From positions 16,150 to 80,149 of the forward strand of contig CALJSB010000041.1 in assembly GCA_937976305.1 (NCBI GenBank): DNA of 64,000 bases, in the 5' to 3' direction. Origin of the DNA: an uncultured Acidimicrobiales bacterium (GTDB taxonomy: Bacteria; Actinomycetota; Acidimicrobiia; Acidimicrobiales; SZUA-35). The notes under the pieces are model-generated. The model searched no databases. It saw only the letters and a list, made by a program, of their open reading frames with translations, and had not been told where the DNA came from. Below, in pieces: positions 8,741 through 64,000 of the stretch (its first letter is position 1; the number at the start of each line of letters is the position of its first letter). A program made the translations under genes and the position numbers.

Positions 8741-8748
8741 GCGTCCTC

Positions 8749-8760
8749 TACCATTTGGTA
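8749..8760. promoter_or_regulatory. Putative TetR operator palindrome
   Basis: TACCA-TT-TGGTA fills most of the 21-bp gap between the divergent reductase and TetR start codons. Confidence 0.55.
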
Positions 8761-8761
8761 A

Positions 8762-9355
8762 GTGAACACCAAGTCTAGGGTGGTCGAGGCCGCTTCCTCC
8801 GCATTCGCAGAACGAGGTTTTGCCGGTACCTCGCTCGACGACTTGGCCCGAATCGTCGGCCTCACCAAGCAATCAATCCTCTACCACTTTGGCTCAAAGG
8901 ACGGCCTTCTAGAGGCCGTCCTCACCCATGGCGCCAGTGAGTTGGTCGACGTGTTGGAAGCCGCGGCGGCCGAAGCACCGGCCGGCTGGCCCCGCGTCGA
9001 GGCGGTGGTGCGTGCATCGTTCGGGCTTGCGGTCAGCCAGCCCGAACTCGTTGGCTTGCTTCGCGAAGTGAGCCGGCTCGGGCCACCACGCTCTGATGTG
9101 GTCGTTCACCGGCTCACGCCCCTGATCGATCGGGCGCTCGCGGGTCTTGAGGCGGGGATGGATGCGGGTCTGTTTCGGCGGTCCGATCCGAGGATCTTGT
9201 TGGCATCGGTGTACGGCGCAGTCACCGGTGTGGTGACGGATGCCGGTGCGCTCGGAGCCGTTGGTCTCGAGCTCGATCTGCGCGTTGCAGTTCGGCTGCG
9301 GCGCACGGTGCTCGACTTCCTGCGGGTCGCTGTTGCCATGGAGCCGCACGAGTAG
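8762..9355 (+). CDS. TetR/AcrR family transcriptional regulator
   Basis: N-terminal HTH: AASSAFAERGFAGTSLDDLARIVGLTKQSILYHFGSK. Confidence 0.95.
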   Translation: MNTKSRVVEAASSAFAERGFAGTSLDDLARIVGLTKQSILYHFGSKDGLLEAVLTHGASELVDVLEAAAAEAPAGWPRVEAVVRASFGLAVSQPELVGLLREVSRLGPPRSDVVVHRLTPLIDRALAGLEAGMDAGLFRRSDPRILLASVYGAVTGVVTDAGALGAVGLELDLRVAVRLRRTVLDFLRVAVAMEPHE

Positions 9356-9435
9356 GTCAGGCGGGATGGACTGACGAGTCGTCAGTTGTGTTGCACGCCT
9401 GCCGTGCACCAAGAGGCTGTGCTTGACTGAGGTCC

Positions 9436-10245
9436 GTGACGGACGTCGGGGAGATTGTCGGGGAAGGCCGAACATCGACCGTTCGCGCCTACGGCAACGA
9501 CTCGGTCATCAAGATCCCGAAGGACCACGTTCCCGATTCGTGGATCGGACTCGAGGCCAGCTTCACCAATGCGGTCCGCTCCGTCGGAGCGCCGGCACCC
9601 GAAGTGCGAGACGTCGTCGAAGTCGGTGGCCGTCCATCCGTCGTGTTCGAGCGCATCAACGGAACGCTGATGTGGGAAGCCATTCGAGCCGAGCCCGAGA
9701 CTTGTGACTCACACATCGCCGATTTGGTCGACCTCCAGCGAGGCATCCACGAGCTCTCGCTTCCACACGACGTTCCCGACCTGGTGACCCGCATGCAGTC
9801 GAAAGCATCAGCAGTGAGTGCGCTTTCGGTGAGTGAACGCGTTGATGCTCGCGACCTGATCGCCAGCCTGCCCCGCGGAGCGGGCGTGCTGCATGGCGAT
9901 CTGCATCCGGGCAACGTCATCATCGCCGACTCCGGTCTGGTGGCCATCGATTGGTTCGACGTCTCGATCGGACATCCGCTGGCAGATGTCTTGAGATCAA
10001 CGCTGCTGATGCGTCCGCTTGCTGGCGAGACGTCGCCTGTTCACCTGCCCGGGGCTGACAAGTCGACGCTCAGCCGTTTGCAGGAGCGCTACATCGAGTT
10101 GTTCAGCGACGTCCTCGACACTGAAACCACGAGCTGGACCGCAGCGGTCGCGGTGAGCCGTCTCGCGGAGTCTGCTGACCCGGACGACAACGACCTCTGG
10201 GAGCGTTGGCGGGCCCGGCCCGAGCTGATCGAACAGTCCCGATAA
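9436..10245 (+). CDS. Aminoglycoside phosphotransferase/choline kinase family protein
   Basis: GEGRTSTV Gly-loop, VIK, HGDLHPGNV catalytic loop, AIDW metal-binding motif. Confidence 0.9.
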   Translation: MTDVGEIVGEGRTSTVRAYGNDSVIKIPKDHVPDSWIGLEASFTNAVRSVGAPAPEVRDVVEVGGRPSVVFERINGTLMWEAIRAEPETCDSHIADLVDLQRGIHELSLPHDVPDLVTRMQSKASAVSALSVSERVDARDLIASLPRGAGVLHGDLHPGNVIIADSGLVAIDWFDVSIGHPLADVLRSTLLMRPLAGETSPVHLPGADKSTLSRLQERYIELFSDVLDTETTSWTAAVAVSRLAESADPDDNDLWERWRARPELIEQSR

Positions 10246-51264: not shown

Positions 51265-52284
51265 TCAGGCAACTGCGTTTTTGGCGGCGACCATGTCGAG
51301 TGCGACGTCGACGATCATGTCTTCCTGGCCACCGACCATGCGCCGCTCGCCAAGCTCGATCAGAATGTCTCGGGTGTCGAGCCCATACATCTCGGCCGCT
51401 TTCTCTGCGTGGCGTAGGAAGCTCGAGTACACACCTGCGTAGCCGAGGCTCAGGGTCTCTCGATCGACTTGAACAGGGCGGTCCTGCAACGGCCGCACGA
51501 GCTCCTCGGCCGCGTCCATGAGTTTGAACACATCGCAGCCGTGCTCCCAGCCCTCGAGGTTTGCGACCGCGATGAACGGCTCGAGTGGGGCGTTGCCAGC
51601 GCCGGCTCCCATGCCGGCGAGGCTGGCGTCAACCCGGTAGCAACCCTCTTCGACGGCAACGACTGAGTTGGCGACGCCAAAGGTGAGGTTGTCGTGGGCG
51701 TGGATGCCGATCTGCGTCTTCGGGTCGAGCACCTCTCGGTATGCCCGCATGCGGGCCCGCACGTCGCCCATGGTGAGACGGCCGCCTGAGTCGGTGATGT
51801 AGACGCACTCAGCTCCGGAGTCCTCCATGATCTTGGCTTGTTGAGCCAGCGGCTCGGGCTCGTTCATGTGGCTCATCATGAGAAATCCGGCGACGTCCAT
51901 GCCGAGGTCGCGGGCTTTGCCGATGTGTTGGAAGGCAATGTCGGCTTCGGTGCAGTGGGTGGCGACGCGGACGGAGGTGACGCCGAGGTCGAATGCTCGT
52001 TGCAGATCGTCGATGGTGCCGATGCCGGGGAGCAGCAGCGTGGCGAGCTTGGCGTTTGTGAGCACACCGGCGACTTCTTCGAGCCACTCCCAGTCGGTGT
52101 GGGCGCCAAAGCCGTAGTTGAAGCTCGATCCAGACAAGCCATCGCCGTGAGCAACCTCGATGGCATCGACCCCGGCCTCGTCGAGCGCCTTTGCTATCTC
52201 GCGCACCGAGTCGATGGAGTACTGATGACGGATGGCATGCATGCCGTCTCGAAGGGTGACGTCTTGTACGTAGATCTTCGTCAT
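51265..52284 (-). CDS. dmpG: 4-hydroxy-2-oxovalerate aldolase
   Basis: [62 protein letters not shown]. Confidence 0.98.
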
Positions 52285-53228
52285 GACGTTGCCCCGGCAG
52301 ATCCGGCATTGATGCGGCTGTCGAGAGCCTCGGCCGTCTTGAGCGCCGCGGAGGTCATGATGTCGAGGTTGCCGGCGTAGGCGGGTAGGTAGTGGGCGGC
52401 TCCCTCCACTTCGAGGAAGATCGACACCTTCCAACCGGTGAACTTCCGGTCGAGATCGGGGATACGAACGGGTGATCCACTGTCGAGCCGTTCGAACTGC
52501 ACCGACTGCTTCAGCCGATAACCGGGAACGTACGACTGGACGGTCTCAACCATCGACACAACCGACGCTTCGATGGCCTCGGGCTCTCCCGACTCGACCA
52601 GGCAGAACACGGTGTTGCGCATGATGAGCGGGGGTTCAGCAGGGTTCAACACGATGATGGCCTTGCCCATCTGAGCGCCGCCGACCTGTTCGATCGCCGC
52701 CGAGGTGGTTTCAGTGAACTCGTCGATGTTGGCCCGGGTGCCTGGCCCGGCCGACCGCGAGGAGATCGACGACACGATTTCGCCGTAGACCACCGGCGCC
52801 ACCTTGTGCACCGCAGCAACCATCGGCACGGTGGCCTGTCCGCCACAGGTGACCATGTTGAGGTTCGGTTCATCGAGATGCTCGTCGAGGTTGACGGGCG
52901 GGATCACGTAGGGGCCAACGGCGGCTGGTGTGAGGTCGAGAATTCGCTTGCCGTCGCGGCGCAGAACCTCGTCGTGTTTTGCGTGAGCGCCAGCAGACGT
53001 TGCATCAAAGACCAGATCGATGTCGTCGTACACGTCGAGCTTGGTGAGGCCCTCGATGCCCTCAGACGTTGTGGCAACGCCCATGTCGCGAGCCTTGGCC
53101 AGGCCGTCGGAGTCGGGATCGATACCGACCATCGCCACGAGATCGACGATCTCCGACGTTCGCTTCGACTTGATCAACAGGTCGGTTCCAATGTTGCCCG
53201 AACCGATCACGGCAGCCTTGATGGTCAC
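52281..53228 (-). CDS. dmpF: Acetaldehyde dehydrogenase (acylating)
   Basis: [51 protein letters not shown] overlap with dmpG. Confidence 0.98.
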
Positions 53229-53308: not shown

Positions 53309-54589
53309 GTGTCTGAGCCTCGGCCACCGCTTCCGAACTACATGCGAGCCTTGCTGGCGTCGCGGTTGTTCGATGCGGGGGCTGCCGTTGGCCTCGTGAC
53401 GATTGTCGGCAAGCAAGCGTTCGACATGACGCAGAACGAGTTGACGCTCGGGTTGCTTGGTCTCGCTGAGTTCTTCCCGACGCTGATCCTCGCCCCGTTT
53501 GCGGGCTCAGTAGCCGACCGTTTCGACCGGCGGCTTGTCGCCGGTGTGACCACCGGCGGGTTCGCGCTCATCTGCCTTGCCCTGTACTTCTACGTGCAGG
53601 GCGATCCGACCTCGGTCGGGCCGATCTACGCACTGATGGCCACATTCGGCACGATTCGTGCCTTTCAGCGGCCCGCAGTGCGAGCCCTCCCTATTGATCT
53701 CGCCCCGGAGGCGGTCGTCGAGCGGGTGGTTGCGCTGAGCTCAGCAAGTTGGCAGGCCGGCATCATTGTCGGGCCGGTGATTGCGGGCTTTGTCTTCACC
53801 GTCGCGATCGAGCTGCCCTACCTGGTGCTTGCCGGCATGTTTGCCATCTCGATCGCTGCGCTGTTCAACACCCCACCCACGGGTGTCACGAAGTTGAGCA
53901 GCCGGCCGGGCGGACGCCAAGCCATCAGCGACGCGTTCGAGGGTCTGCGCTTCATCCGCCAGGCACCGGTGGTCGGAGGCGCAATCGTGCTCGATCTGTT
54001 TGCCGTCCTGCTCGGCGGGGCCGTTGCCCTGCTCCCAGCGATCGCCGAAGAACGCCTCGGCGTTGGCGCCGTGGGGTTGGGCTGGTTGCGGGCCGCGGTT
54101 GGTATCGGGGCGTCGTCTGTGACGCTGATGTTGGCCGTCCGCCCAGTGGCCCGGCGGGTAGGAACGATCTTGCTCGCGTCCATCGGCATCTTTGGCGTCG
54201 CCACAATCGTGCTCGGGCTCACCACCAATTTCGTTGTTGCCATGCTGGCCCTCGGAATCATCGGTGGGTCGGATTCTGTCAGTGTGTTCATTCGGGCGAC
54301 CCTGGTGCCACTGGCCACGCCCGAGCACATGCGGGGCCGGGTACTGGCGCTCGAGAGTGTGTTCATTGGTGCGAGCAACGAGCTCGGAGCGTTCGAGTCG
54401 GGAGTGACGGCGGCAGCCTTCGGGTTGGTTCCTGCCGTCATCTTCGGAGGTACCGGCACGCTTGTTGTCGTGGCGGGCTTCTGGTTCTTGTTCCCGGTGA
54501 TGCGTCGGATCGACCGCTTCGCTGATGCCCGGGTGGCCCCGGTCAGCGGGTCGGCGGAAGCCGCAGATAGGGCCACGGACTCGGAATGA
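53309..54589 (+). CDS. MFS transporter (EntS/DHA3-like)
   Basis: GSVADRFDRR motif A, LDLFAVLLGGAVALLP, MRGRV...FIGASNELGAFESG. Confidence 0.92.
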   Translation: MSEPRPPLPNYMRALLASRLFDAGAAVGLVTIVGKQAFDMTQNELTLGLLGLAEFFPTLILAPFAGSVADRFDRRLVAGVTTGGFALICLALYFYVQGDPTSVGPIYALMATFGTIRAFQRPAVRALPIDLAPEAVVERVVALSSASWQAGIIVGPVIAGFVFTVAIELPYLVLAGMFAISIAALFNTPPTGVTKLSSRPGGRQAISDAFEGLRFIRQAPVVGGAIVLDLFAVLLGGAVALLPAIAEERLGVGAVGLGWLRAAVGIGASSVTLMLAVRPVARRVGTILLASIGIFGVATIVLGLTTNFVVAMLALGIIGGSDSVSVFIRATLVPLATPEHMRGRVLALESVFIGASNELGAFESGVTAAAFGLVPAVIFGGTGTLVVVAGFWFLFPVMRRIDRFADARVAPVSGSAEAADRATDSE

Positions 54590-56147
54590 GATCGGGCATC
54601 GACGCCACGACCAACGACGGGCCGCGGTGGGCAAATGCTGTCTCGAGGGCAGACCGCAGCTGTGTGACGTCATCGACTCGCTGGCTCTGCACGCCGAAGC
54701 TCTCACCAAAGGCGACGAAGTCCGGATTCTGAAGGTCAGAGGCAATGGTGCGGTCTGGACCGTAGCGCTCGACCTGGAATCGCTTGACGTTGCCGTATGA
54801 GCCGTTGTCATGCAGCAGGATGGTGACGCCGATGTTGTACTGCACCGCCGTGGCCAGCTCGGCTGCGGTGAAGAGGAAACCACCGTCGCCAACGAGGTTC
54901 AACACGGTTCGATCAGGCGCGGCGGCTTGGGCTCCAATGGCGTGGGCCACACCGGCGCCGAGCGTTCCGGCCGCACTCGTGGTGAGAAAGGTGCGGGGAT
55001 GGCGAAAGTCGAACGCGAGGTGCGACGCGAACCCCATTTGGGTCACGTCTTCAACGATGACCCCATCGTCTGGCAGCACATCGCGTATGGCGCTGAGGGT
55101 CGACAGCTGGGGCTCGAGGTGCGCAACCTTGGCTGCAAACGCCTCACGGCGCTCGGCGAGTTCGTCGTGGCGGTTGGGTCGCGCCGGGTTCAGCGGGGCC
55201 AATGCGTCGATCAGCGCCCGGGTGCCGGTGGAGGCGTCCGCATGAATGCCGATGGTGCCGATGCCTCGGCGATCAAGCTCGTCCTCGTCGACGTTGATCT
55301 GGATGAGGTTCAGACCCTCGGTGCCCCAGTCGAGTGGGAACTCCAGGCGGCTCCCGATGCCAACGACGGCATCACACTCGGCCCAGAGTTCGTGGCCGAC
55401 CGTGATCGGAATCCACAACGGGTGTTGGCTGGGCAGCACGCCGTGGCCTTGGCGTCTGGTGAAGGTTGGTGCCTGCAGCATTTCGGCGAGTTCGCGGACC
55501 TCTGCCGACGCCTCGTGGGCACCTCCACCAACGATCACAAGCGGCCGTTCGGCCGAAGCCAACAGTTCGGCTGCGGCAGCAATCTGGTCATCCGCCGGTG
55601 TCGGAAAGGTCGCCGTCGGAGGAACGAGGACACCGTCGACTTCTTGTTTCCACGCCGTGACTGGAATCTCGACGCTGACCGGGCGCGGAATACCAGACAC
55701 CACCGAGTCGACGGCCTGTTGGAGCGACGCAACAGCTGACTCACCCGTTGGGATGTAGTGCGACTCCTTGGTGATCTGTTCGAGCACCGCGGTTTGATCT
55801 GGCAGCTCGTGGAGAACGCCGATGCCCTGGCCTTTGACATGGTCGGGGATGGCGCCGATGAGCGCCAGCACTCGGCCGCCGGCCCAGTAGGCGCTGGTCA
55901 GCGCGGCGCCGGCGTTGAGCATTCCGGGGCCGGGCACCACGCAAAAGGCGGCAGGGGCGTTGGTGATCTGCGATGCCCCAAGGGCCATGTAGGCGGCACC
56001 TTGTTCGTGTCGGGTGACGATCGGGGTGATGTCTCGGGCGTCGACGAGCCGGTCGAAGAAGTCGTCGTTCTGCACGCCAGGGAGGCAGAAGAGTTGGCGG
56101 ATGCCGAGGGCTCTGAGGGCCTCGATGGTGAGATCGGCGACGGTCAT
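54543..56147 (-). CDS. Thiamine-diphosphate-dependent enzyme (ALS-large-subunit-like fold, substrate unknown)
   Basis: FCLPG, RHEQGAAYMA catalytic Glu, and GDGGFLF...NGSYG ThDP/Mg motif. Confidence 0.93.
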   Translation of the reverse strand: MTVADLTIEALRALGIRQLFCLPGVQNDDFFDRLVDARDITPIVTRHEQGAAYMALGASQITNAPAAFCVVPGPGMLNAGAALTSAYWAGGRVLALIGAIPDHVKGQGIGVLHELPDQTAVLEQITKESHYIPTGESAVASLQQAVDSVVSGIPRPVSVEIPVTAWKQEVDGVLVPPTATFPTPADDQIAAAAELLASAERPLVIVGGGAHEASAEVRELAEMLQAPTFTRRQGHGVLPSQHPLWIPITVGHELWAECDAVVGIGSRLEFPLDWGTEGLNLIQINVDEDELDRRGIGTIGIHADASTGTRALIDALAPLNPARPNRHDELAERREAFAAKVAHLEPQLSTLSAIRDVLPDDGVIVEDVTQMGFASHLAFDFRHPRTFLTTSAAGTLGAGVAHAIGAQAAAPDRTVLNLVGDGGFLFTAAELATAVQYNIGVTILLHDNGSYGNVKRFQVERYGPDRTIASDLQNPDFVAFGESFGVQSQRVDDVTQLRSALETAFAHRGPSLVVASMPDLIPSPWPYLRLPPTR

Positions 56148-57613
56148 GCTTCGTACCCCGGCGCTGGTTGGAAGCCGCCGATCTCTGTCTCCATCATCGC
56201 AGCGAAGGCAATGCTCTCTCGATCACGCAGATGGCCGGCAACGATCTGTAACCCGCACGGCAGGCCATCGGCGGTGAGCCCGGCGGGGGCAACGGTGCCG
56301 GGCAGGTACACGCCGCACGACCACCCGGCCCAGAACAGCTGATCGGTGGTCGGCTCTTCGTTGCCGTTGACGGTGATGGTTCGCTCGGGGCGCGTCTTGG
56401 CGTGGTCATGGGGGTAAGCGGTCGACGCTGCCGTCGGGCACAGCAGCACGTCGTATTCCTCGAAGAAGCGGTGCCAGGCGAGGCGGGATGCCTCTCGCTC
56501 GGCGTTCCAGCTGGACCACTCCCAGTACGACATCGTGATGGCTTTCGAAGCGACTGCTTGGTAGTCGCGGTCGCCGTTGTCGAAGCGCTCGGAATCGGGG
56601 TGTTGGGCGGCGAAGACCTCCGGGGTTGCTTCGCTGCCCGTCGTCGAGCGCAGCAACATCAAGTAGGTCTCGTGGCTTCGCTCGATGTCGATCTCGGGTC
56701 GAGCCTCAAAGTCGAGTTGCACTCCGAGCTCACCGAGTTTGTCGACCGTTGCGGCGAGCTGGTCGATCAAAGCACTGTCGGTTTGCAGCACCGGGCTCTC
56801 GAACATGACGGCAGCCTTGAGTGTGTCGGGTCGGGTCTTGCGAGGGGGCGGTAGTTCGAGGTTCCAGGCCACCGAATCGAGCACGCCAGGGCCGGCAACG
56901 ATGTCGAGACCGAGGGTGAGATCCTCTGCGTAGCGGGCCATTGGGCCTCCGACACCGATATCGAGCGGAACGATTGACCCTGGGTTGCCGTGGCCCTCGA
57001 CCGGCACCAGGCCATAGGTCGGCTTGTGGCCAAAGATGCCGCAGTAGTGGGCCGGGTTTCTGATCGAGGCGCCAATGTCACTCCCGAGTTCGAGAGCCGT
57101 CATGCCAGAAGCCAAGGCCGCAGCGGCGCCGCCCGAGGAGCCACCCGGTGTCAAACCACCCTCGACGTTGTCAGGGTTCCAGGTGTTCGACGTCGTTCCA
57201 TACACGGGGTTGAACGTCTGCCAGTCGGCCATCGACACTGGCAAGTTGGTCTTTCCGTAGATCACTGCACCCGCGTCGAGCAGCCGTTGAATCGGGATCG
57301 AGTTCTGCTCAGGGCGCCAGTCCTTGCGGCTTTCGTGGCCAGACGTCGACGGCGATCCGATCCAATCCCACGCCTCCTTGATCGTCATCGGAACACCGTG
57401 AAGCGGTCCCCATGATTCGCCGTTCGCCGTTGCGGTGTCGGCAGCGACAGCTCGTTCTCTGGCCAGGTCAAGCTGGGTGAAGATCACTGCGTTGAGCGTC
57501 GGATTGAATCGCTCGTATCGGGCGAGGGTCGCGTCGAGCAGTTCGACGGCAGAGATGTCGCCCGAGCGGATGGCGCCAGCTTGATCGGTTGCAGAGGCGA
57601 GGGTGATGTCCAT
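56144..57613 (-). CDS. Amidase-signature family hydrolase
   Basis: Start MDITLAS at 57613 (the upstream part of the 666-aa ORF is antisense to the lipoprotein gene). TIKE, PGGSSGG, GSDIGASIRNP. ATGA coupling to the ThDP gene. Confidence 0.93.
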   Translation of the reverse strand: MDITLASATDQAGAIRSGDISAVELLDATLARYERFNPTLNAVIFTQLDLARERAVAADTATANGESWGPLHGVPMTIKEAWDWIGSPSTSGHESRKDWRPEQNSIPIQRLLDAGAVIYGKTNLPVSMADWQTFNPVYGTTSNTWNPDNVEGGLTPGGSSGGAAAALASGMTALELGSDIGASIRNPAHYCGIFGHKPTYGLVPVEGHGNPGSIVPLDIGVGGPMARYAEDLTLGLDIVAGPGVLDSVAWNLELPPPRKTRPDTLKAAVMFESPVLQTDSALIDQLAATVDKLGELGVQLDFEARPEIDIERSHETYLMLLRSTTGSEATPEVFAAQHPDSERFDNGDRDYQAVASKAITMSYWEWSSWNAEREASRLAWHRFFEEYDVLLCPTAASTAYPHDHAKTRPERTITVNGNEEPTTDQLFWAGWSCGVYLPGTVAPAGLTADGLPCGLQIVAGHLRDRESIAFAAMMETEIGGFQPAPGYEA

Positions 57614-57701
57614 GGCTTGCCGACCGTAGTCGGTGGGCTGAGTGCGGCCCATGTGAACCGAACGCGGGTGCTTCAAGACCGCTCCGTTCTGCCGATGGAG
57701 C

Positions 57702-58535
57702 GTGATGTCGAATTCTCGTTCTCTGCGCGTTCGCCTTCTTTCGATCTTGTTTGGATTCAGCCTGCTGGCCACAGCTTGCGGTGGCGAAGCCGAGGATGCG
57801 GGCCCGTCTGTCACCGTTGCTCGGACCAGCACACCAGTCACAACGGCTTCGACAACCACTGAGTCGACGACGACCACCACGACCGAGCCAACGACAACCG
57901 AGGAAGAGACAGAAGCTGACGACGAGGCAGAAGATCTCGAAGAGTCGACCACGACCGCAGCGCCGACCACCACAGCGACGCCGACGACGCTCGCCTTTGC
58001 CGACGACGACTCGGCTGCTGGCGGCGGCTCAGGCTCAGGTAACGGTGACACAGCAACCGCAACGACCGTTGCCGGTGGCGCTGACACGACGGCTGTTGCC
58101 GGTGACGCAGCCGAAACAACAACCACCATCGCAACCACAACCACGATTGACCCGTTTGCGCCGCTCGAGAATTTCGATCAGATCGTGTTGCCCTTCGGCG
58201 ACGCCGTGTCCTCGGTGTCGGTGCAGAGCGTCAATCTGAAATGCGACAGCAACGGCGTGAGCCCGCAGGTGCTCATCTTCGCTCCCTTCGATCTCAGCGG
58301 CGCAGACCAGCAGGTGACGTTCTACGGGCCCTCCGGCGCTGCCTACGTTGCGACGGGCCAGGCCGGTTCGGGCAACATCGAGACCTTCACCACGTGGCTC
58401 AGCGATCCAGTAGTCGCAGACTCGTTCGACTGGGTGGCGATCTGCTCGCAGCCGTCGTGGAAGGTGCTCATCGAGCTCTCCGACGAAGAAGGCCCGTTGT
58501 TCACCGCTGCCGCCTTCGCATCAATCTCGGGCTGA
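57702..58535 (+). CDS. Hypothetical lipoprotein with Thr-rich linker
   Basis: Lipobox LATA|C, a long T/E/A low-complexity stalk, and a ~120-aa C-terminal domain with two Cys. Confidence 0.75.
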   Translation: MMSNSRSLRVRLLSILFGFSLLATACGGEAEDAGPSVTVARTSTPVTTASTTTESTTTTTTEPTTTEEETEADDEAEDLEESTTTAAPTTTATPTTLAFADDDSAAGGGSGSGNGDTATATTVAGGADTTAVAGDAAETTTTIATTTTIDPFAPLENFDQIVLPFGDAVSSVSVQSVNLKCDSNGVSPQVLIFAPFDLSGADQQVTFYGPSGAAYVATGQAGSGNIETFTTWLSDPVVADSFDWVAICSQPSWKVLIELSDEEGPLFTAAAFASISG

Positions 58536-58537
58536 GT

Positions 58538-59362
58538 TCAGCCGGCGAGGTCGTACGTCGCAATCGTGCAGCTGACGGCGAAGATCGGGATCGGTTCACA
58601 AAAGTGCACGGTGCCGATGGCGCCCTGTGCTGCGGCAGCAACGGTCAAGAAGGTTCTGATTTCGAAGCCCCCTTGCCCGGCATCGGCGTAGACCGACTCA
58701 TCGGTGTAATCGAGCAAGTCGTCTCGGTCGTTTCGGCACCAGCGGTCGAGAAAGTCTCGATCCCACGCTTCGTTGATCTTTCCGGAGTCCGGAGTTGCAG
58801 GCCAATGTGAGATTCCTCCCGTCCCGACGATTGCGATGCGCTCTGGAACCGCATCGCACGCTCGGCGTAACGCTTCGCCGAAGTTCCATGCTCGGGCCAA
58901 CGGTGTGAGTGGGGGGCCTTGGCAGTTGATGTTCACCGGAATGACGGGCAGATCGAAGTTGGGTGTGAGGAAGTGCAGTGGGACGGCAATGCCGTGATCA
59001 AACTTCCACTCCTCGCAGTAGGACACGTCGGCAGTCTCCATCACCTCGGCGATGAGACGGGTCGAGATGTCTCGGCTGCCGGGGGCCCGGAACTTGTCGA
59101 TGGCGAGCCAATCGGGGTCTTCGATGGGACCGTCGTAGAAGTCGGCCATCCCGATGGCAAAACTCGGCATGTTGTTCATGAAGAAGTTCGCGAAGTGCTC
59201 GGCCGCAACAATTACTACCGCGTCGGGCTTCGTCGTCTCGAGATCGTGTCGCATCTGTTCGAACGCGGCGTAGAACCCGTCGCGCACCACTGGGTCGGCC
59301 TGGTCGGCCCGCCCGGTGATGCCGGGGGCGTGGCTGCACACTCCGGCAAAGACAAGCGGCAT
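58538..59362 (-). CDS. Class III (LigB-family) extradiol ring-cleavage dioxygenase, catalytic subunit
   Basis: SHAPG, AEHFANFF, DHG..VPL, GTGGISHWP, GFEIRTF. TGATG coupling. Confidence 0.93.
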   Translation of the reverse strand: MPLVFAGVCSHAPGITGRADQADPVVRDGFYAAFEQMRHDLETTKPDAVVIVAAEHFANFFMNNMPSFAIGMADFYDGPIEDPDWLAIDKFRAPGSRDISTRLIAEVMETADVSYCEEWKFDHGIAVPLHFLTPNFDLPVIPVNINCQGPPLTPLARAWNFGEALRRACDAVPERIAIVGTGGISHWPATPDSGKINEAWDRDFLDRWCRNDRDDLLDYTDESVYADAGQGGFEIRTFLTVAAAAQGAIGTVHFCEPIPIFAVSCTIATYDLAG

Positions 59363-59754
59363 CAGCGATCTCCGTTGGTGTTTTGTTGGCCCACCGCAGA
59401 GTTCTGGCCGAGGGCCGTGCTGTGGGCGTCTGTTCCTTCGTAGCCCGTCATGGCATACACGCCTTCGCGCACCGGCCCGTGTTCGTCGATGCCGTCGCGC
59501 ATGCGCTGCAGATAGTCCTGCCACTCGATCTGATGGAACGCAGCGAAGTGCATCAGGATCTGGCCGTTGCAGCCGAGGTGGAACAGCTTGCCGATGTCCG
59601 GCATGACCAGCGCAGCAACTTCTTCTTCGGAGAGGTCGGCCCCTTCAGACACAAACGACTCCACCGTTGCCGTCGCATCGGCTCGGAACGCCGCTTGGAC
59701 CTGCTCGCTTCGATTGAGTTCGTAGAGAAACTTCTGTACGTAATAGAGGCTCAC
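59362..59754 (-). CDS. LigA-like small subunit of the extradiol dioxygenase
   Basis: MSLYYVQKFLYELNR...LSEEEVAAL..PDIGKLFHLGCNGQILMHFA. Directly precedes the LigB-like gene. Confidence 0.85.
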   Translation of the reverse strand: MSLYYVQKFLYELNRSEQVQAAFRADATATVESFVSEGADLSEEEVAALVMPDIGKLFHLGCNGQILMHFAAFHQIEWQDYLQRMRDGIDEHGPVREGVYAMTGYEGTDAHSTALGQNSAVGQQNTNGDR

Positions 59755-59766
59755 TGGTCGATGACC

Positions 59767-61068
59767 TCAGTCCCACTCGACCCAGAGGTTGTCCGGGCCT
59801 CGAAAGGTGATGTTGGGAAAGTAGGTGTTCTGCTGATCGTCGGCCAAGCGCAACGTGGGGATGCGCTCGGTCAACAGTTCGAGGGCGATGACGGCCTCGA
59901 TCTTGGCCAGGTTGGCGCCGAGGCAGTAGTGAATGCCCTTTCCGAAACTGATGTGGCGGCTCGCATCTTCACGGTGGATGTTGAACGTGTTCGGATCATC
60001 GAATCGGTCGGGCTGGCGGTTGGCGCTGGCAAAGTTGAGGAAGATCCGCGTGCCGGCCGGCAAGTCGACACCGGCGAGGGAGGTTGGTTCGGTCGTCACC
60101 CGCCGCCACGCGATCTGGCTCGACTCAAAGCGAAGTGTCTCCTCGACTGCGTTGGGGATAAGTGACGGATCATCAATCAGCGCCTGCCACTGGTCGCGAC
60201 GAGGGAGGAGGCACAGGAGGGTGTTGCAGAGCAGGTTGGTGACTGGGTCGTGACCTGCGAACGAGAGCCCGTAGATGATCGATTCGACTTCGACGTAGCT
60301 GAGCTCGTTGTTGTCGGCGTCGTGTGCATCGAGCAGCTCCGAAGCGAAGTCGTCAGCCCGGTTGTCGCGCCGGCCAGCGGTGAACTCCCGGCAGTAGCGC
60401 CAGTAGGTGAGCATGTGCTCGGCGATTCGGATCTGCTCGTCCGGCGTCGGACGGCCCCACGAGAACGCCTTCCGTTCGACGCACCATTGCTTGATCATCT
60501 CATCGTCGCTCTGGGGGAACCCGATGAAGCGGAAGACAATCTCGGCTGGTAGCGGGAAGGCAAGCGATGAGACGTACTCGGCCCGGTTACCAGCGGTTGC
60601 GCCGTTGGCGAGCATGGCATCGATGAGCACATTGGCTCGCTCTCGCATGTAGTCCTCGAGCGTGCGGAGTCGACGTTTCGAGAAACCCTTGCGGGTGTAC
60701 ACGCGGATGCGGGCGTGATCAGGCTCGGCCCGGTTCGACATCACTGCGGTTGGGTTGAAGTCGGGAGCGGCGAGCACGTCGGTGGCCCGCTCGTCGAGCG
60801 GGTAGAGCGGATCTTGGACGTTCGAAGAGGCATAGATGTCGGGATTGGTGAAGACCTCTTCGATGTCTTCCATTTTCGTCACGACGACATAGCCAACTTC
60901 TTCGGCGTAGAACACCGGGTGGTCGTCGCGCAGCTTGGCTGCGATGGGGTAGGGGTCGGCCAAATAGTCGTCGCCCAGCGGGTTCCAGCTCTGATGAACC
61001 GGGCAACCGCTTGGAGCACCCAGGATCTCGTCGGGAGCTTGGTGGTAGGTGTTCTCGGTTTCGGTCAT
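59767..61068 (-). CDS. Cytochrome P450, CYP116-like stand-alone heme domain
   Basis: EETLR (ExxR), PDRF, FGKGIHYCLG. SWGRPTPDEQ resembles the CYP116 F-G region. The I-helix reads AGHDP instead of A(G/A)xET. Confidence 0.95.
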   Translation of the reverse strand: MTETENTYHQAPDEILGAPSGCPVHQSWNPLGDDYLADPYPIAAKLRDDHPVFYAEEVGYVVVTKMEDIEEVFTNPDIYASSNVQDPLYPLDERATDVLAAPDFNPTAVMSNRAEPDHARIRVYTRKGFSKRRLRTLEDYMRERANVLIDAMLANGATAGNRAEYVSSLAFPLPAEIVFRFIGFPQSDDEMIKQWCVERKAFSWGRPTPDEQIRIAEHMLTYWRYCREFTAGRRDNRADDFASELLDAHDADNNELSYVEVESIIYGLSFAGHDPVTNLLCNTLLCLLPRRDQWQALIDDPSLIPNAVEETLRFESSQIAWRRVTTEPTSLAGVDLPAGTRIFLNFASANRQPDRFDDPNTFNIHREDASRHISFGKGIHYCLGANLAKIEAVIALELLTERIPTLRLADDQQNTYFPNITFRGPDNLWVEWD

Positions 61069-61105
61069 GTGTCCCCTTCAGTGCGTCCAGTCCAATGTGG
61101 CCGGG

Positions 61106-61918
61106 TCAGGTGAAGTCGATCGTGAATGAGCCCAGCGGGCCGTAGTCGGCCACGAATGAATCACCAGCTCGCACATCAATTGGTCTGGTGAACGATCCGG
61201 CGAGAATGGTCTGCCCGGCAGCGAGCGTCATGCCTTGCTCGACGTAGCGCTTGGCCAGCCAGACGATGCCGGTCGCAGGGTGGCCGAGAACGCCGGCGGC
61301 AAGGCCAGTCTCTTCGATGGTTCCGTTGCGGCTCAGGAGGGCGCCAGTCCAGCGAAGGTCGGTATCGCGGGGCCCGATCCGTTCGCCGCCGGTGATGATG
61401 CCTGCATTGGCCGCGTTGTCAGAGATGGTGTCGACAACGGTTCGAGTCCGGCCGGTGTCGGGGTTACGTCGGAAACTCCGAGCTGCGATGAGCTCGAGCG
61501 CCGGCACGACGTAGTCGGTCGCATCAAGCACTGTCTCGATGCCGAACCCATCAGCGGACACGGTTGCAGCGTCGAGATCGTCCGCAAGCACAAAGGCCAG
61601 CTCGACTTCGATCTTCGGGTCGAGGTGATCGGCGGCCGGTATCTCGCCACCAGCTTCGAACACCATGGCATCGGTGATGAACCCCGAGTCGGGCGTTTCG
61701 ATGTTCATCGCCATCTGCATGGCGCGTGACGTGAGGCCGATCTTGTGGCCAACGAGCGATTCGCCACGGCCGAGCTTGAGATCTTGCCAAGCGGCCTGAA
61801 TCCGATACGCATCATCGATTGTGGCGTCGGGGAAAAACTCGGTCGTCGGTACAACCTGGGTGCGGTTCTGCTCGGCTTCGTCGAGTCGTTGAGCTTCGGC
61901 AATCACGTCGAGGGTCAT
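61106..61918 (-). CDS. hpaH: 2-oxo-hept-4-ene-1,7-dioate hydratase-like
   Basis: [52 protein letters not shown]. Confidence 0.9.
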
Positions 61919-62394
61919 GCGCTCTCCTTGAGTTCATGCGATTCATGGTCCGCATTGGGCGCGGTGTCGATCAATCGCTCCAGCAGATCGAACAGGCGGT
62001 AGAGGTCGTCCGTGCCGACAATCGATTCGAGGTCGGCGTACTGCTCCTCGGACAATGGCGCGATGCGGGCGACGAGTCGGCGCCCTTTCGCAGTGAGCGA
62101 TGCCAGCGACTTGCGTTGGTCGTGTTTGTCAGTGCGGCGACGAATGAGTCCGCGCTGTTCGAGGTTGCTGAGAATCCGGGACAGGCTCGGCCCAAGCAGA
62201 CAAGTGGCTTCCGCCACGTCACCGACGTCAAGTGCTTCGGCCGTCTGGTCAAGCGCTCGCAGCACCCGCCATTGTTGTTCGGTGAGATCGTGGGCCGAGA
62301 GAATCGGCCGGAATCGACGCATTGTCGCCTCGCGGGCTCGCATCAACGCCATGGGAAGCGACTGATCAAACGGGCGAAGGACGGGGTCGGTCAC
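61915..62394 (-). CDS. hpaR: Homoprotocatechuate operon repressor (MarR family)
   Basis: SLPMALMRAREATMRRFRPIL..HDLTEQQWRVLRAL...LGPSLSRIL. Confidence 0.92.
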   Translation of the reverse strand: MTDPVLRPFDQSLPMALMRAREATMRRFRPILSAHDLTEQQWRVLRALDQTAEALDVGDVAEATCLLGPSLSRILSNLEQRGLIRRRTDKHDQRKSLASLTAKGRRLVARIAPLSEEQYADLESIVGTDDLYRLFDLLERLIDTAPNADHESHELKESA

Positions 62395-63296
62395 TGCGGC
62401 TCCGGGGTGACGACGGGGTTGGCTTCGAGTTCAACGGGGCTGAACTCATCGACCACCGGGTTGCTGAGCGTTCCGATTTCTGGCACGTGCACGTCAATCA
62501 CGTCGCCAGGCGCCAGCCATTGTGGCGGATCGAGCCTGGCCCCGGCACCGGTCGGTGTGCCAGTGAAGATGACATCGCCGGGGTGGAGTTCGGTGAAGGT
62601 CGACAAGTAATGAATCTGGTACTCGATCGAGTACTTCATCGTCTTCGGCGAATCGGCCTGGCGAAGCTCGCCGTTGACGTGGGTGGTGATTCTCAGATCG
62701 TCGAAGGGTGGTATCTCGTCCATGGTCACGAGGTGGGGGCCGATCGCTCCACTCGACATCCAGTTCTTTCCCTGCGTCACGTTGAACTTGGCATGCCGGA
62801 CCCAGTCACGAATGGTGCCTTCGTTGCCTAACGACAGCCCGGCGAGGTGGCTTCGGGCATCGGCCACGGCAATTCGTCTGCCAGGCGTACCGATCACGGC
62901 GACGATCTCGCCTTCGTAATCGAGTTGGGGGCTTTCGGGCGGCCGCACGAGCGGCTGACCATGGCCGGTGAAACCATCGGGAAAGCGGGGGAACACGCTT
63001 GGGTAGGCGGCGTCGCTCGTGTCGGCGTACTCATCGGCTCGACCGCCGTAGTTGACGCCGATGCAAAAGATCTTTCGGGGCCACGGAAGCAGGCGTTCAT
63101 GGGTGACCTCGGCAAGGGCATAGTCAGCTGGTTCGTCGACGAACGCCGTAGCCTCGCCGAGTCGCTGGCTCGAAACCAGTGCTCCGAGATCGGCGACATC
63201 ACTCATTCGGCGGCCGAGATCGATCACGCCAAGGCCATCCTGTGTGTGGGCGCCAAAGCTCGATTGTCCGCCCGTTGAATAGGAGAGCAACCGCAT
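62391..63296 (-). CDS. Fumarylacetoacetate-hydrolase family protein (HpaG-like isomerase/decarboxylase)
   Basis: KIFCIGVNY, LDYEGEI, NEGTIRDW, QGKNW..SGAIGP, PGDVIFTGTP. Confidence 0.92.
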   Translation of the reverse strand: MRLLSYSTGGQSSFGAHTQDGLGVIDLGRRMSDVADLGALVSSQRLGEATAFVDEPADYALAEVTHERLLPWPRKIFCIGVNYGGRADEYADTSDAAYPSVFPRFPDGFTGHGQPLVRPPESPQLDYEGEIVAVIGTPGRRIAVADARSHLAGLSLGNEGTIRDWVRHAKFNVTQGKNWMSSGAIGPHLVTMDEIPPFDDLRITTHVNGELRQADSPKTMKYSIEYQIHYLSTFTELHPGDVIFTGTPTGAGARLDPPQWLAPGDVIDVHVPEIGTLSNPVVDEFSPVELEANPVVTPEPQ

Positions 63297-63299
63297 CGA

Positions 63300-63340
63300 C
63301 ACATGTTACGCACCCTCGGACACAATTTGCCTAACATGTG
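63300..63340. promoter_or_regulatory. Putative HpaR operator pair
   Basis: CACATGTTA (63300-63308) and its exact reverse complement TAACATGTG (63332-63340) in the 49-bp divergent gap. Confidence 0.7.
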
Positions 63341-63345
63341 AAGCA

Positions 63346-63750
63346 ATGCCTCATGTGACGATCGAGTATTCAAGCAACGTGCAGCTCCACCACGACATCG
63401 ATGCGTTGGTGAACGCCGTGCACGCTGCCGCCCTCGACGATGGCCTCCCGCCTCTCGCTGGACTTCGAACACGAGCGGTGTCGCGAGAGCACTACCAAGT
63501 GGCAACGGGCGATGACGAATTGGCCTTTGTTGCCATCACAGCCCGTATCGGCCCCGGCCGCAGCGACGAGCAGAAGACGCGGTTTCTGACTGCGTTGCTC
63601 GACGCCACCGAAACGATGTTGCAGCCAGGCCCGCTGCACATCGCCTTCAGTGCAGAGATCCAAGAGATCGATATCGAGTTCCGGATCAACAGAAACCACG
63701 TTCGGCCCTACCTCGAAGGCCGCGATCAACAGGAGACGACCGATGGCTGA
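63346..63750 (+). CDS. hpaF: 5-carboxymethyl-2-hydroxymuconate isomerase
   Basis: N-terminal MPH (catalytic Pro), IEYSSNV, GLRTRA, RIGPGRS, SAEIQEI. Confidence 0.9.
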   Translation: MPHVTIEYSSNVQLHHDIDALVNAVHAAALDDGLPPLAGLRTRAVSREHYQVATGDDELAFVAITARIGPGRSDEQKTRFLTALLDATETMLQPGPLHIAFSAEIQEIDIEFRINRNHVRPYLEGRDQQETTDG

Positions 63751-64000
63751 CGCCGCTGATCTCGAGACAAACACGCGTGCGGCGACCGAGCATCTCGCCC
63801 GATTCGCTTCGACGCCGACCCATCACCTCATTGCCGGTGAATCGGTGCCGAGTGCCGACGGTGCAACGTTCGAGAACGTGTCGCCGATCGATGCCATGCG
63901 GCTCGGCGATGTCTCGTCAGGGGACGCCGCCGACGTCGATCGAGCGGCTGCTGCTGCCGCCGATGCCTTTCGGGAGTGGTCCACGACGCCGGGGGTCAAG
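63743..64000 (+). CDS. hpaE: Aldehyde dehydrogenase, probably 5-carboxymethyl-2-hydroxymuconate semialdehyde dehydrogenase (5' fragment)
   Basis: Hand translation: MADAADLETNTRAATEHLARF...HHLIAGESVPSADGATFENVSPID...DVDRAAAAAADAFREW. AGGAG RBS. The hpaE call rests on context. Confidence 0.75.
   Translation, partial: MADAADLETNTRAATEHLARFASTPTHHLIAGESVPSADGATFENVSPIDAMRLGDVSSGDAADVDRAAAAAADAFREWSTTPGVK

Follow-up and report, generated by a model that had tools for sequence, protein, structure and literature searches.

An hpa-type gene cluster carrying a stand-alone cytochrome P450 gene and ligAB-like genes in an uncultured Acidimicrobiales bacterium

Canonical hpa clusters make the catechol homoprotocatechuate (3,4-dihydroxyphenylacetate, HPC) with the flavin monooxygenase HpaBC and cleave it with the single-chain dioxygenase HpaD/HpcB. 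To our knowledge the step from 4-hydroxyphenylacetate (4-HPA) to HPC is so far known only from flavin enzymes, and a cytochrome P450 feeding hydroxyphenylacetate ring cleavage is known for homogentisate and not for homoprotocatechuate. OhpA, of the CYP116B group, is a 2-hydroxyphenylacetate 5-hydroxylase (PMC8449657); OhpA and CYP116B234 convert 2-hydroxyphenylacetate to homogentisate, a ring-cleavage substrate, and are often encoded beside hmgA (PMC8449657, PMC11889516). Here we describe an hpa-type locus of an uncultured Acidimicrobiales bacterium, in which a stand-alone P450 gene and a pair of ligA-like and ligB-like genes lie in one operon with hpa genes. The locus is at the end of a window of 64,000 nucleotides, positions 16150-80149 of contig CALJSB010000041.1 (C41), in an assembly of 4.42 Mb in 160 contigs which is 91.6% complete; positions below are in window numbering unless another piece is named.

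The reading which we favour, and which we hold to be about evenly poised between right and wrong, is that of an HPC meta-cleavage regulon in a lineage-specific form, with a P450 hydroxylase and LigAB. Judged by homology, lower pathway and regulation follow the classical hpa system; other families supply the enzyme for ring cleavage and the presumed hydroxylase, and the aldolase is unlinked. The architecture is solid; the enzymology we infer from it.

Gene content, conservation and operator

Gene identities were taken from the listing of open reading frames (ORFs) and from Pfam and NCBIfam profile scores against the curated cutoffs. The operon on the minus strand starts with an hpaG-like gene of the FAH family (62391-63302; PF01557, 197.7 bits), presumed to encode the OPET decarboxylase/isomerase. 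The product has a single FAH domain and its top NCBIfam model is the C-terminal HpaG model TIGR02303, at 141 bits below the cutoff of 276; its orthologs, of 53-80% identity, adjoin hpaR in most related loci. The next two genes are hpaR (61915-62394), for the MarR-family repressor of the homoprotocatechuate operon (TIGR02337 equivalog, 153.9 against 121.2, the match spanning HMM positions 1-130), and hpaH (61106-61918), for 2-oxo-hept-4-ene-1,7-dioate hydratase (TIGR02312 equivalog, 359.8 against 351.5; 54% identity to the annotated hpaH of Deinococcus deserti). The start of hpaR is ambiguous, with a GTG at 62394 giving 159 aa and the later start of the gene caller 135 aa. The stand-alone P450 gene follows (59767-61068; 433 aa, PF00067), a candidate for the catechol-forming monooxygenase, and the operon continues with the ligA-like small subunit (59362-59754; 130 aa, PF07746, 40.4 bits against a cutoff of 25.3) and the ligB-like catalytic subunit (58538-59362; 274 aa, PF02900, 122 bits), the presumed homoprotocatechuate extradiol dioxygenase.

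The six genes are tightly packed. With hpaR starting at the GTG at 62394, the FAH gene and hpaR, and hpaR and hpaH, overlap by 4 bp each; hpaH and the P450 gene are 37 bp apart, the P450 gene and ligA 12 bp, and the ligA stop and the ligB ATG share one base (TGATG), the listed ligB ORF being over-extended. A predicted lipoprotein gene (57702-58535, plus strand) converges on ligB with stop codons 3 bp apart and closes the operon. On the plus strand, divergent from the hpaG-led operon across a 43-bp region, are hpaF (63346-63750) for 5-carboxymethyl-2-hydroxymuconate isomerase (CHMI; PF02962, 101 bits against 26.5) and the 5' part of hpaE (63650-64000) for 5-carboxymethyl-2-hydroxymuconate semialdehyde dehydrogenase. 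The latter gene crosses the window edge; read from the contig it is complete (800-2416 of L002, a further piece of C41) and scores 782 bits on TIGR02299 against a cutoff of 638, and it probably starts about 50 codons past the GTG at 63650. An earlier reading of this DNA, made from its sequence only, had described a six-gene minus-strand run with overlaps or gaps of at most 37 bp, situated opposite hpaF and hpaE; all six genes, their junctions and the two divergent genes were verified.

The arrangement is characteristic of the lineage. A LigB-based scan of genomes representing species gave more than 585 relatives. The top 80 of them, each of at least 71% identity and nearly all carrying the label Acidimicrobiia, were taken, and the window proteins were mapped onto them over a neighbourhood of 8 kb. 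A ligA gene adjoins ligB in 79 of these genomes, at least one hpa gene is within the neighbourhood in 63 and at least three in 41, so LigAB as the ring-cleavage partner of hpaE and hpaF, proposed from this single locus, is kept across most related species. Directly upstream of ligA is hpaE in 27 of the 80 genomes and the P450 gene in 24. Two main layouts are seen, hpaG-hpaR-(hpaH)-P450-ligA-ligB as in the window, and hpaF-hpaE-ligA-ligB divergent from hpaG-hpaR-hpaH-P450.

Of the 80 LigB loci, 39 hold a P450 ortholog (at least 50% identity), and 35 of these 39 also have hpa genes. The ortholog stands either between ligA and hpaH (or hpaR) or last in an hpaG-hpaR-hpaH operon; the P450 which the sequence-only reading saw once thus recurs in the same regulon. 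More than one hundred orthologs of about 70% identity are found in Acidimicrobiia metagenome bins. A metagenome scan with the P450 returned only 10 loci. Of nine orthologs from a P450-based scan, six adjoin hpa or LigAB genes and one is cut by a contig end. In a maximum-likelihood tree the few solo copies, without hpa genes around them, and the kinase-linked copies nest inside the hpa-linked clade, and therefore do not form a separate paralogue. Unbiased clustering of all neighbouring ORFs gave the P450 as the only recurrent oxygenase besides LigAB. The homologues of the P450 and of LigB point to Acidimicrobiia, near Ilumatobacteraceae.

The 43-bp divergent control region carries two putative HpaR-type boxes, ACACATGTTA (63299-63308) and TAACATGTGA (63332-63341). 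The sequence-only reading had seen here a perfect inverted repeat; its 13-nt arms (63300-63312 and 63328-63340) match at 12 of 13 positions, only a 9-bp core being perfect, and two copies of a palindromic box describe the region better. The site at 63332 is the sole match with at most one mismatch to TAACATGTTA in the whole 4.42-Mb assembly. An alignment of the hpaG-hpaF intergenic regions of 36 related genomes shows the TAACATGTTA palindrome in nearly every one: it is perfect in 14, has at most one mismatch in 22 and at most two mismatches in 33 of 37. Across 522 kb of these loci, the hpaG-hpaF intergenic region holds every one of the 14 perfect sites and of the 22 with no more than one mismatch. 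Such a distribution is far beyond chance. No such box was found upstream of the solo P450 orthologs. The HpaR site TTAA-N4-TTAA was footprinted in Yersinia pseudotuberculosis and called similar to the site of E. coli W, and the TAACATGTTA box agrees with this pattern (PMC7180172). This is good evidence for a genuine HpaR operator controlling both divergent operons and little else.

The canonical enzymes were searched for with the hpaB, hpaD, hpaH and hpaI genes annotated on a plasmid of D. deserti as tblastn queries against the whole assembly. None of hpaB, hpaC, hpaD and hpaI is found in the 26.8 kb of contig beyond the window, and the best match to HpaB in the whole 91.6%-complete assembly has E = 2. 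HpaB is also absent by tblastn from about 100 related loci, a single distant locus excepted; this lone homologue among the fetched loci (L030, 6856-8280) is directly upstream of a distant P450 of 33% identity. Neither type of HpaD has a close match by TIGR02298, TIGR02295 or tblastn on the assembly. On TIGR02298, the LigB-type HpaD_Fe, the window's LigB scores 24 bits against a cutoff of 316. The VOC-type HpaD query matches only two catechol-2,3-dioxygenase-like genes about 10 kb away, at 25-28% identity, and these score 214-216 bits on TIGR02295 (VOC-type HpaD) against 321. The HpaI query finds one HpcH-family homologue in the assembly (29-32% identity, contig C51, among housekeeping genes), and hpaI is present in few related loci (L017, L070, L088, L091). 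The sequence-only reading of an HpaR-controlled homoprotocatechuate-type cluster without hpaBC and hpaD therefore stands after this search of the downstream contig and of the assembly: no canonical hpaBC and hpaD follow it, and its P450 does occur with hpa genes in other genomes.

Two neighbouring genes may be mentioned in connection with the aldolase. A DmpG-type 4-hydroxy-2-oxovalerate aldolase (TIGR03217, 571 bits) and a DmpF-type acylating acetaldehyde dehydrogenase (TIGR03215, 457 bits) are encoded at 51265-53228 on the minus strand, 5 kb from ligB; the pair may serve a catechol meta-pathway of the contig or might replace the missing HpaI aldolase.

Ring cleavage and formation of the catechol

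The top NCBIfam model of LigB is the class III extradiol family NF009901, with 146 bits against a cutoff of 290, and the protein is also below the equivalog cutoffs of protocatechuate 4,5-dioxygenase (85 against 837), gallate dioxygenase (97 against 412) and MhpB (115 against 467). The closest solved relatives are DesB, MhpB and LigB, all weak matches of 72-90 bits. The iron ligands His11, His56 and Glu234 align with His12, His59 and Glu239 of DesB, and the catalytic histidines His123 and His186 with His124 and His192. DesB, MhpB and LigB belong to the protocatechuate family of the LigB superfamily and not to the homoprotocatechuate family (PMC4250580). By these matches the window's LigB is placed in the protocatechuate branch and apart from the E. 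coli-type HpaD, and therefore looks like a non-orthologous HpaD replacement. The sequence-only reading had set HpaD against the LigAB type as such; this premise needs correction, since HpaD/HpcB of E. coli is itself of the LigB superfamily, and on the alignments the real difference is the separate LigA subunit together with membership of the protocatechuate branch. LigAB is best read as the HPC-cleaving enzyme of this lineage, its substrate being taken from the gene context.

The same scores admit another view. As LigB is under every curated NCBIfam cutoff, its substrate is unreadable from homology, and the locus could be a mosaic in which LigAB cleaves a catechol other than HPC, or in which the P450 is only a passenger, with no part in the hpa pathway. 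P450 orthologs are found without hpa genes in L006, L011, L018 and L022-L024, and for 17 of the 80 LigAB loci the flanks are free of hpa genes; many of the loci without hpa genes, however, are short contigs. Against a mosaic are also the direct succession of hpaE and ligA in the 27 species mentioned, the translational coupling of ligA and ligB within hpa operons under one conserved HpaR box, and the presence of CHMI and of an HpaE above its equivalog cutoff, both of which argue for the 5-carboxymethyl product of HPC 2,3-cleavage. We regard the mosaic as quite unlikely.

For the P450 the nearest solved structure is CreJ (5gwe/5xjn; 280 bits, 35.7% identity), followed by the heme domain of CYP116B46 (259 bits, 33.3% identity over 412 aligned residues); as judged by sequence matches at E = 1e-82, the P450 fold is settled. 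Members of one CYP family share at least 40% identity. The protein is below this threshold for both CreJ and CYP116B and is thus not of the CYP116 family. It has no fused PFOR-type reductase, PF00067 being the only match in its 433 aa. The heme ligand is Cys382, within the motif FGKGIHYCLG. In the I-helix, CreJ and CYP116B carry His-Glu-Thr; the sequence here is FAGH-Asp274-Pro275, and its Asp-Pro pair is kept in 116 of 120 P450 orthologs, the other four having Glu-Ala.

We take the P450 for the catechol former because the pathway needs a catechol, HpaB is absent, and the P450 is the only conserved oxygenase besides LigAB, and because it is usually directly before ligA and under the HpaR box. 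The most economical and most likely reading is that it is a ring hydroxylase of 4-HPA or 3-hydroxyphenylacetate, giving HPC. Ring hydroxylation is favoured because the CYP116B enzymes hydroxylate 2-hydroxyphenylacetate and so feed homogentisate cleavage. The sequence-only reading had let the P450 form the catechol by either of two routes; ring hydroxylation has a precedent in OhpA (PMC8449657), and O-demethylation of homovanillate has gained no specific support.

The regulon would then work as follows. HpaR would bind the two TTAA-N4-TTAA-type boxes in the 43-bp hpaG-hpaF region and repress both divergent operons until an arylacetate effector arrives. The stand-alone P450, in place of HpaBC, would ring-hydroxylate 4-HPA or 3-hydroxyphenylacetate to HPC with electrons from an unlinked ferredoxin system. 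The LigA/LigB heteromer, replacing HpaD, would open HPC to 5-carboxymethyl-2-hydroxymuconate semialdehyde, and HpaE, HpaF, the FAH enzyme and HpaH would process this product onward, with the final aldolase encoded elsewhere.

Several points weigh against this scheme. The identity of the P450 to characterised P450s reaches only 33-36%, and its conserved Thr is replaced (Asp274-Pro275); with this loss and the low identity, ordinary O2 activation is not assured. The ORF clustering shows no ferredoxin or reductase beside the P450 in any surveyed neighbourhood. Roughly every second LigAB-hpa locus lacks a P450 within 8 kb, so the pathway can do without a linked one, for example by starting from HPC. 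In L017 and L020 the P450 orthologs sit with a kinase using phosphoenolpyruvate (PEP) and an alcohol dehydrogenase, and in L022 and L023 with an FMN-dependent hydroxyacid dehydrogenase, PrpF and an amidohydrolase. The assembly is a metagenome-assembled genome, so that the absence of HpaB is not absolute, and the HpaI aldolase is neither in the cluster nor on the contig. The small ORFs adjoining the P450 are without Cys motifs.

The unusual I-helix and the consistent lack of a linked ferredoxin or reductase are the grounds for a further version, in which the Asp-Pro clade would be a natural phenol ortho-hydroxylase, peroxide-driven (peroxygenase-like) or substrate-assisted, turning 4-HPA into HPC; this we consider very doubtful. 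If true, it would be a third, heme-based solution across a class of abundant aquatic Actinobacteria.

Some further observations on the surroundings of the P450 clade may be added. In L022 a 69%-identical ortholog (8139-9452) has no hpa genes around it. The flanks in L022 and L023, both metagenome contigs, also hold a D-2-hydroxyacid dehydrogenase, an Amidohydro_2 protein (LigI-like) and a SerB-like HAD protein, the FMN-dependent dehydrogenase being of the mandelate type; these contexts hint that some members may have a wider role with aromatic acids, or a different one. In L002 (2442-3947, minus strand), convergent with hpaE, is a GlcD-like FAD-linked oxidase (PF01565 and PF02913), homologues of which come after the P450 in L042 and L056; it may be a 2-hydroxyacid dehydrogenase acting as a feeder.

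If the P450 were instead an O-demethylase, it would convert homovanillate (4-hydroxy-3-methoxyphenylacetate) or a related methoxy-arylacetate to HPC and formaldehyde, and LigAB would again cleave HPC. Synteny supports this equally well as ring hydroxylation, and O-dealkylation is a known activity of the CYP116 family, as seen in P450 RhF. A Zn alcohol dehydrogenase adjoins the P450 in L017, L020 and L007, its top NCBIfam model being the class III or mycothiol-dependent formaldehyde dehydrogenase-like TIGR03451, below the cutoff (233 against 513); in these three loci it could handle formaldehyde or oxidise an alcohol. However, the window's operon and most related loci carry no formaldehyde-handling gene, 4-HPA would lack an entry route in a genome without HpaB, and the closest proven native function among the relatives is hydroxyphenylacetate ring hydroxylation (PMC8449657). 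We judge O-demethylation to be rather unlikely.

The match to CreJ suggests still another role, one absent from the sequence-only reading. CreJ oxidises the side chains of phosphorylated alkylphenols, and the P450 could likewise act on a phosphorylated alkylphenol or alkylcatechol, oxidising its alkyl side chain, for instance ethyl to alcohol, after which dehydrogenases would yield the arylacetate and a phosphatase would free the ring-cleavage substrate; we hold this whole route to be unlikely. CreJ is the top solved match, with 280 bits, and the nearest outgroup P450 (37% identity, Brevibacterium epidermidis, L013) is in a cre-type cluster. In L017 one operon has an ABC transporter, PEP-utilizers, PPDK_N, HAD, aldehyde dehydrogenase, alcohol dehydrogenase, P450, LigA and LigB genes, beside hpa genes, and L020 carries PEP-utilizers, alcohol dehydrogenase and P450 genes. 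About 13 kb past hpaE the contig of the window itself carries a cluster with PPDK_N, PEP-utilizers and His-phosphatase genes. Furthermore, Arg132, Arg133 and Arg199 of the P450 are common to CreJ-type enzymes and absent from CYP116B, a comparison which is only suggestive, as these residues might just as well hold a carboxylate or a ferredoxin. On the other side, a kinase homologue is within 8 kb in none of the 80 LigB loci; the kinase-linked P450s are one small subclade, with kinase adjacency only in L017 and L020; the ORF clustering gave no recurrent phosphatase beside the P450, the HAD phosphatases near it being unrelated to each other; and a monophenol oxidised on its side chain would still need a step that forms the catechol. 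Ring hydroxylation of 4-HPA or 3-hydroxyphenylacetate would fill this step and is the reading retained here.

The phosphorylation-type clusters have the following content. L013 (6932-13738), from the cultured B. epidermidis NBRC 14811, has IclR, P450, PPDK_N, PEP-utilizers, SDR and ferredoxin reductase genes, with a VOC extradiol dioxygenase upstream. The cluster on the window's own contig (C41 88642-96964, or L002:9643-17965, about 9-17 kb past the window) has an IclR gene and, divergent from it, a tandem pair of catechol-2,3-dioxygenase-like genes (TIGR03211, above cutoff), and continues with a histidine phosphatase, PPDK_N (388 aa), PEP-utilizers (600 aa; NF006150, 805 bits) and a Rieske/LigXa-like oxygenase; further hpaH/dmpE-like hydratases are downstream. 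By its gene content it looks like a cre/hpe-type phenol-phosphorylating cluster with the Rieske oxygenase in the place of CreJ.

On the other side of ligB, the convergent lipoprotein (57702-58535) has a signal peptide and the lipobox LLATAC, then a Thr-rich low-complexity region, and no family match. Beyond it an amidase gene (NF004816, above cutoff) overlaps the gene of a thiamine pyrophosphate-dependent enzyme (PRK08266-like, 568 against a cutoff of 571) at 54543-57619 on the minus strand, next to an MFS transporter (53309-54589, plus strand). This arrangement is kept only in the closest relative (L003). The amidase and thiamine pyrophosphate enzyme genes were considered as operon members and rejected, the lipoprotein gene intervening and the conservation being confined to this relative; the three genes could be feeders yielding arylacetates. 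A foreign-island origin of the locus was likewise rejected, the GC content of 0.61-0.62 across it being the same as in the flanks.

Significance and comparison with known systems

Members of the Ilumatobacter group of Acidimicrobiia are common in sediments, in sponges and in marine and fresh waters, but hardly any has been cultured, so that only genomes tell which carbon sources they use. An annotation by the standard rules would score the present pathway as incomplete, because HpaBC, HpaD and HpaI are missing; the survey shows instead a coherent and conserved alternative with one shared operator, which would alter the scoring of hydroxyphenylacetate and tyrosine-derived aromatic turnover in metagenomes. 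Our literature searches gave no description of a P450 or of a two-subunit LigAB in hpa clusters, nor of the pathway in Acidimicrobiia. Two enzymes seem worth characterising. One is a LigAB-type dioxygenase presumably recruited to a new substrate; the other is a P450 which belongs to a new family, has an unusual helix in its active site and may be a 4-HPA 3-hydroxylase. Enzymes catalysing this last reaction serve in the production of catechols, among them hydroxytyrosol, caffeate and L-DOPA analogues.

The closest known system for the locus as a whole is the hpa (hpc) cluster of E. coli W and C, with HpaR-repressed hpaGEDFHI and HpaA-activated hpaBC. Common to both are HpaR and a TTAA-N4-TTAA-type operator, HpaE, HpaF (CHMI), HpaH, an FAH-family HpaG-like enzyme, and the gathering of the regulator and the meta-pathway genes at one locus. 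The window cluster differs by being without HpaBC, HpaA and HpaI, by a two-subunit LigAB of the protocatechuate branch instead of HpaD, by an HpaG-like protein with a single FAH domain and not a two-domain fusion, and by the P450 inside its HpaR-controlled operon.

With LigAB, DesB and MhpB the dioxygenase shares the LigB domain, the His/His/Glu iron ligands and the two catalytic histidines (PMC4250580, PMC3962378), and with LigAB the separate, translationally coupled LigA-type small subunit. Unlike in these systems, the window's ligB is among hpa genes and not among genes of the ligCIJK type, and Asn57 of DesB is Ala in its product.

For the P450 two groups can be compared. CreJ, of the p-cresol pathway of Corynebacterium glutamicum, is like it a stand-alone P450 of class I type in actinobacterial aromatic catabolism and shares Arg132, Arg133 and Arg199, and two related loci put the P450 clade with a CreHI-type kinase and dehydrogenases. 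Unlike the cre genes, the window operon has no kinase, phosphatase or CreEF redox partner; CreJ retains Glu-Thr and feeds 4-hydroxybenzoate and protocatechuate, not the hpa pathway. OhpA, CYP116B1 and CYP116B234 are a related P450 group (33% identity to CYP116B46), from which the window P450 differs by consisting of the heme domain only, without the fused PFOR reductase, by an identity below 40%, which sets it in a different family, by Asp-Pro in place of Glu-Thr, and by its linkage to homoprotocatechuate instead of homogentisate genes, its activity being a predicted one. In the CYP116B enzymes hydroxyphenylacetate ring hydroxylation supplies a dioxygenase whose gene, hmgA, is often adjacent, and it is this same role which we propose for the P450 of the present locus.

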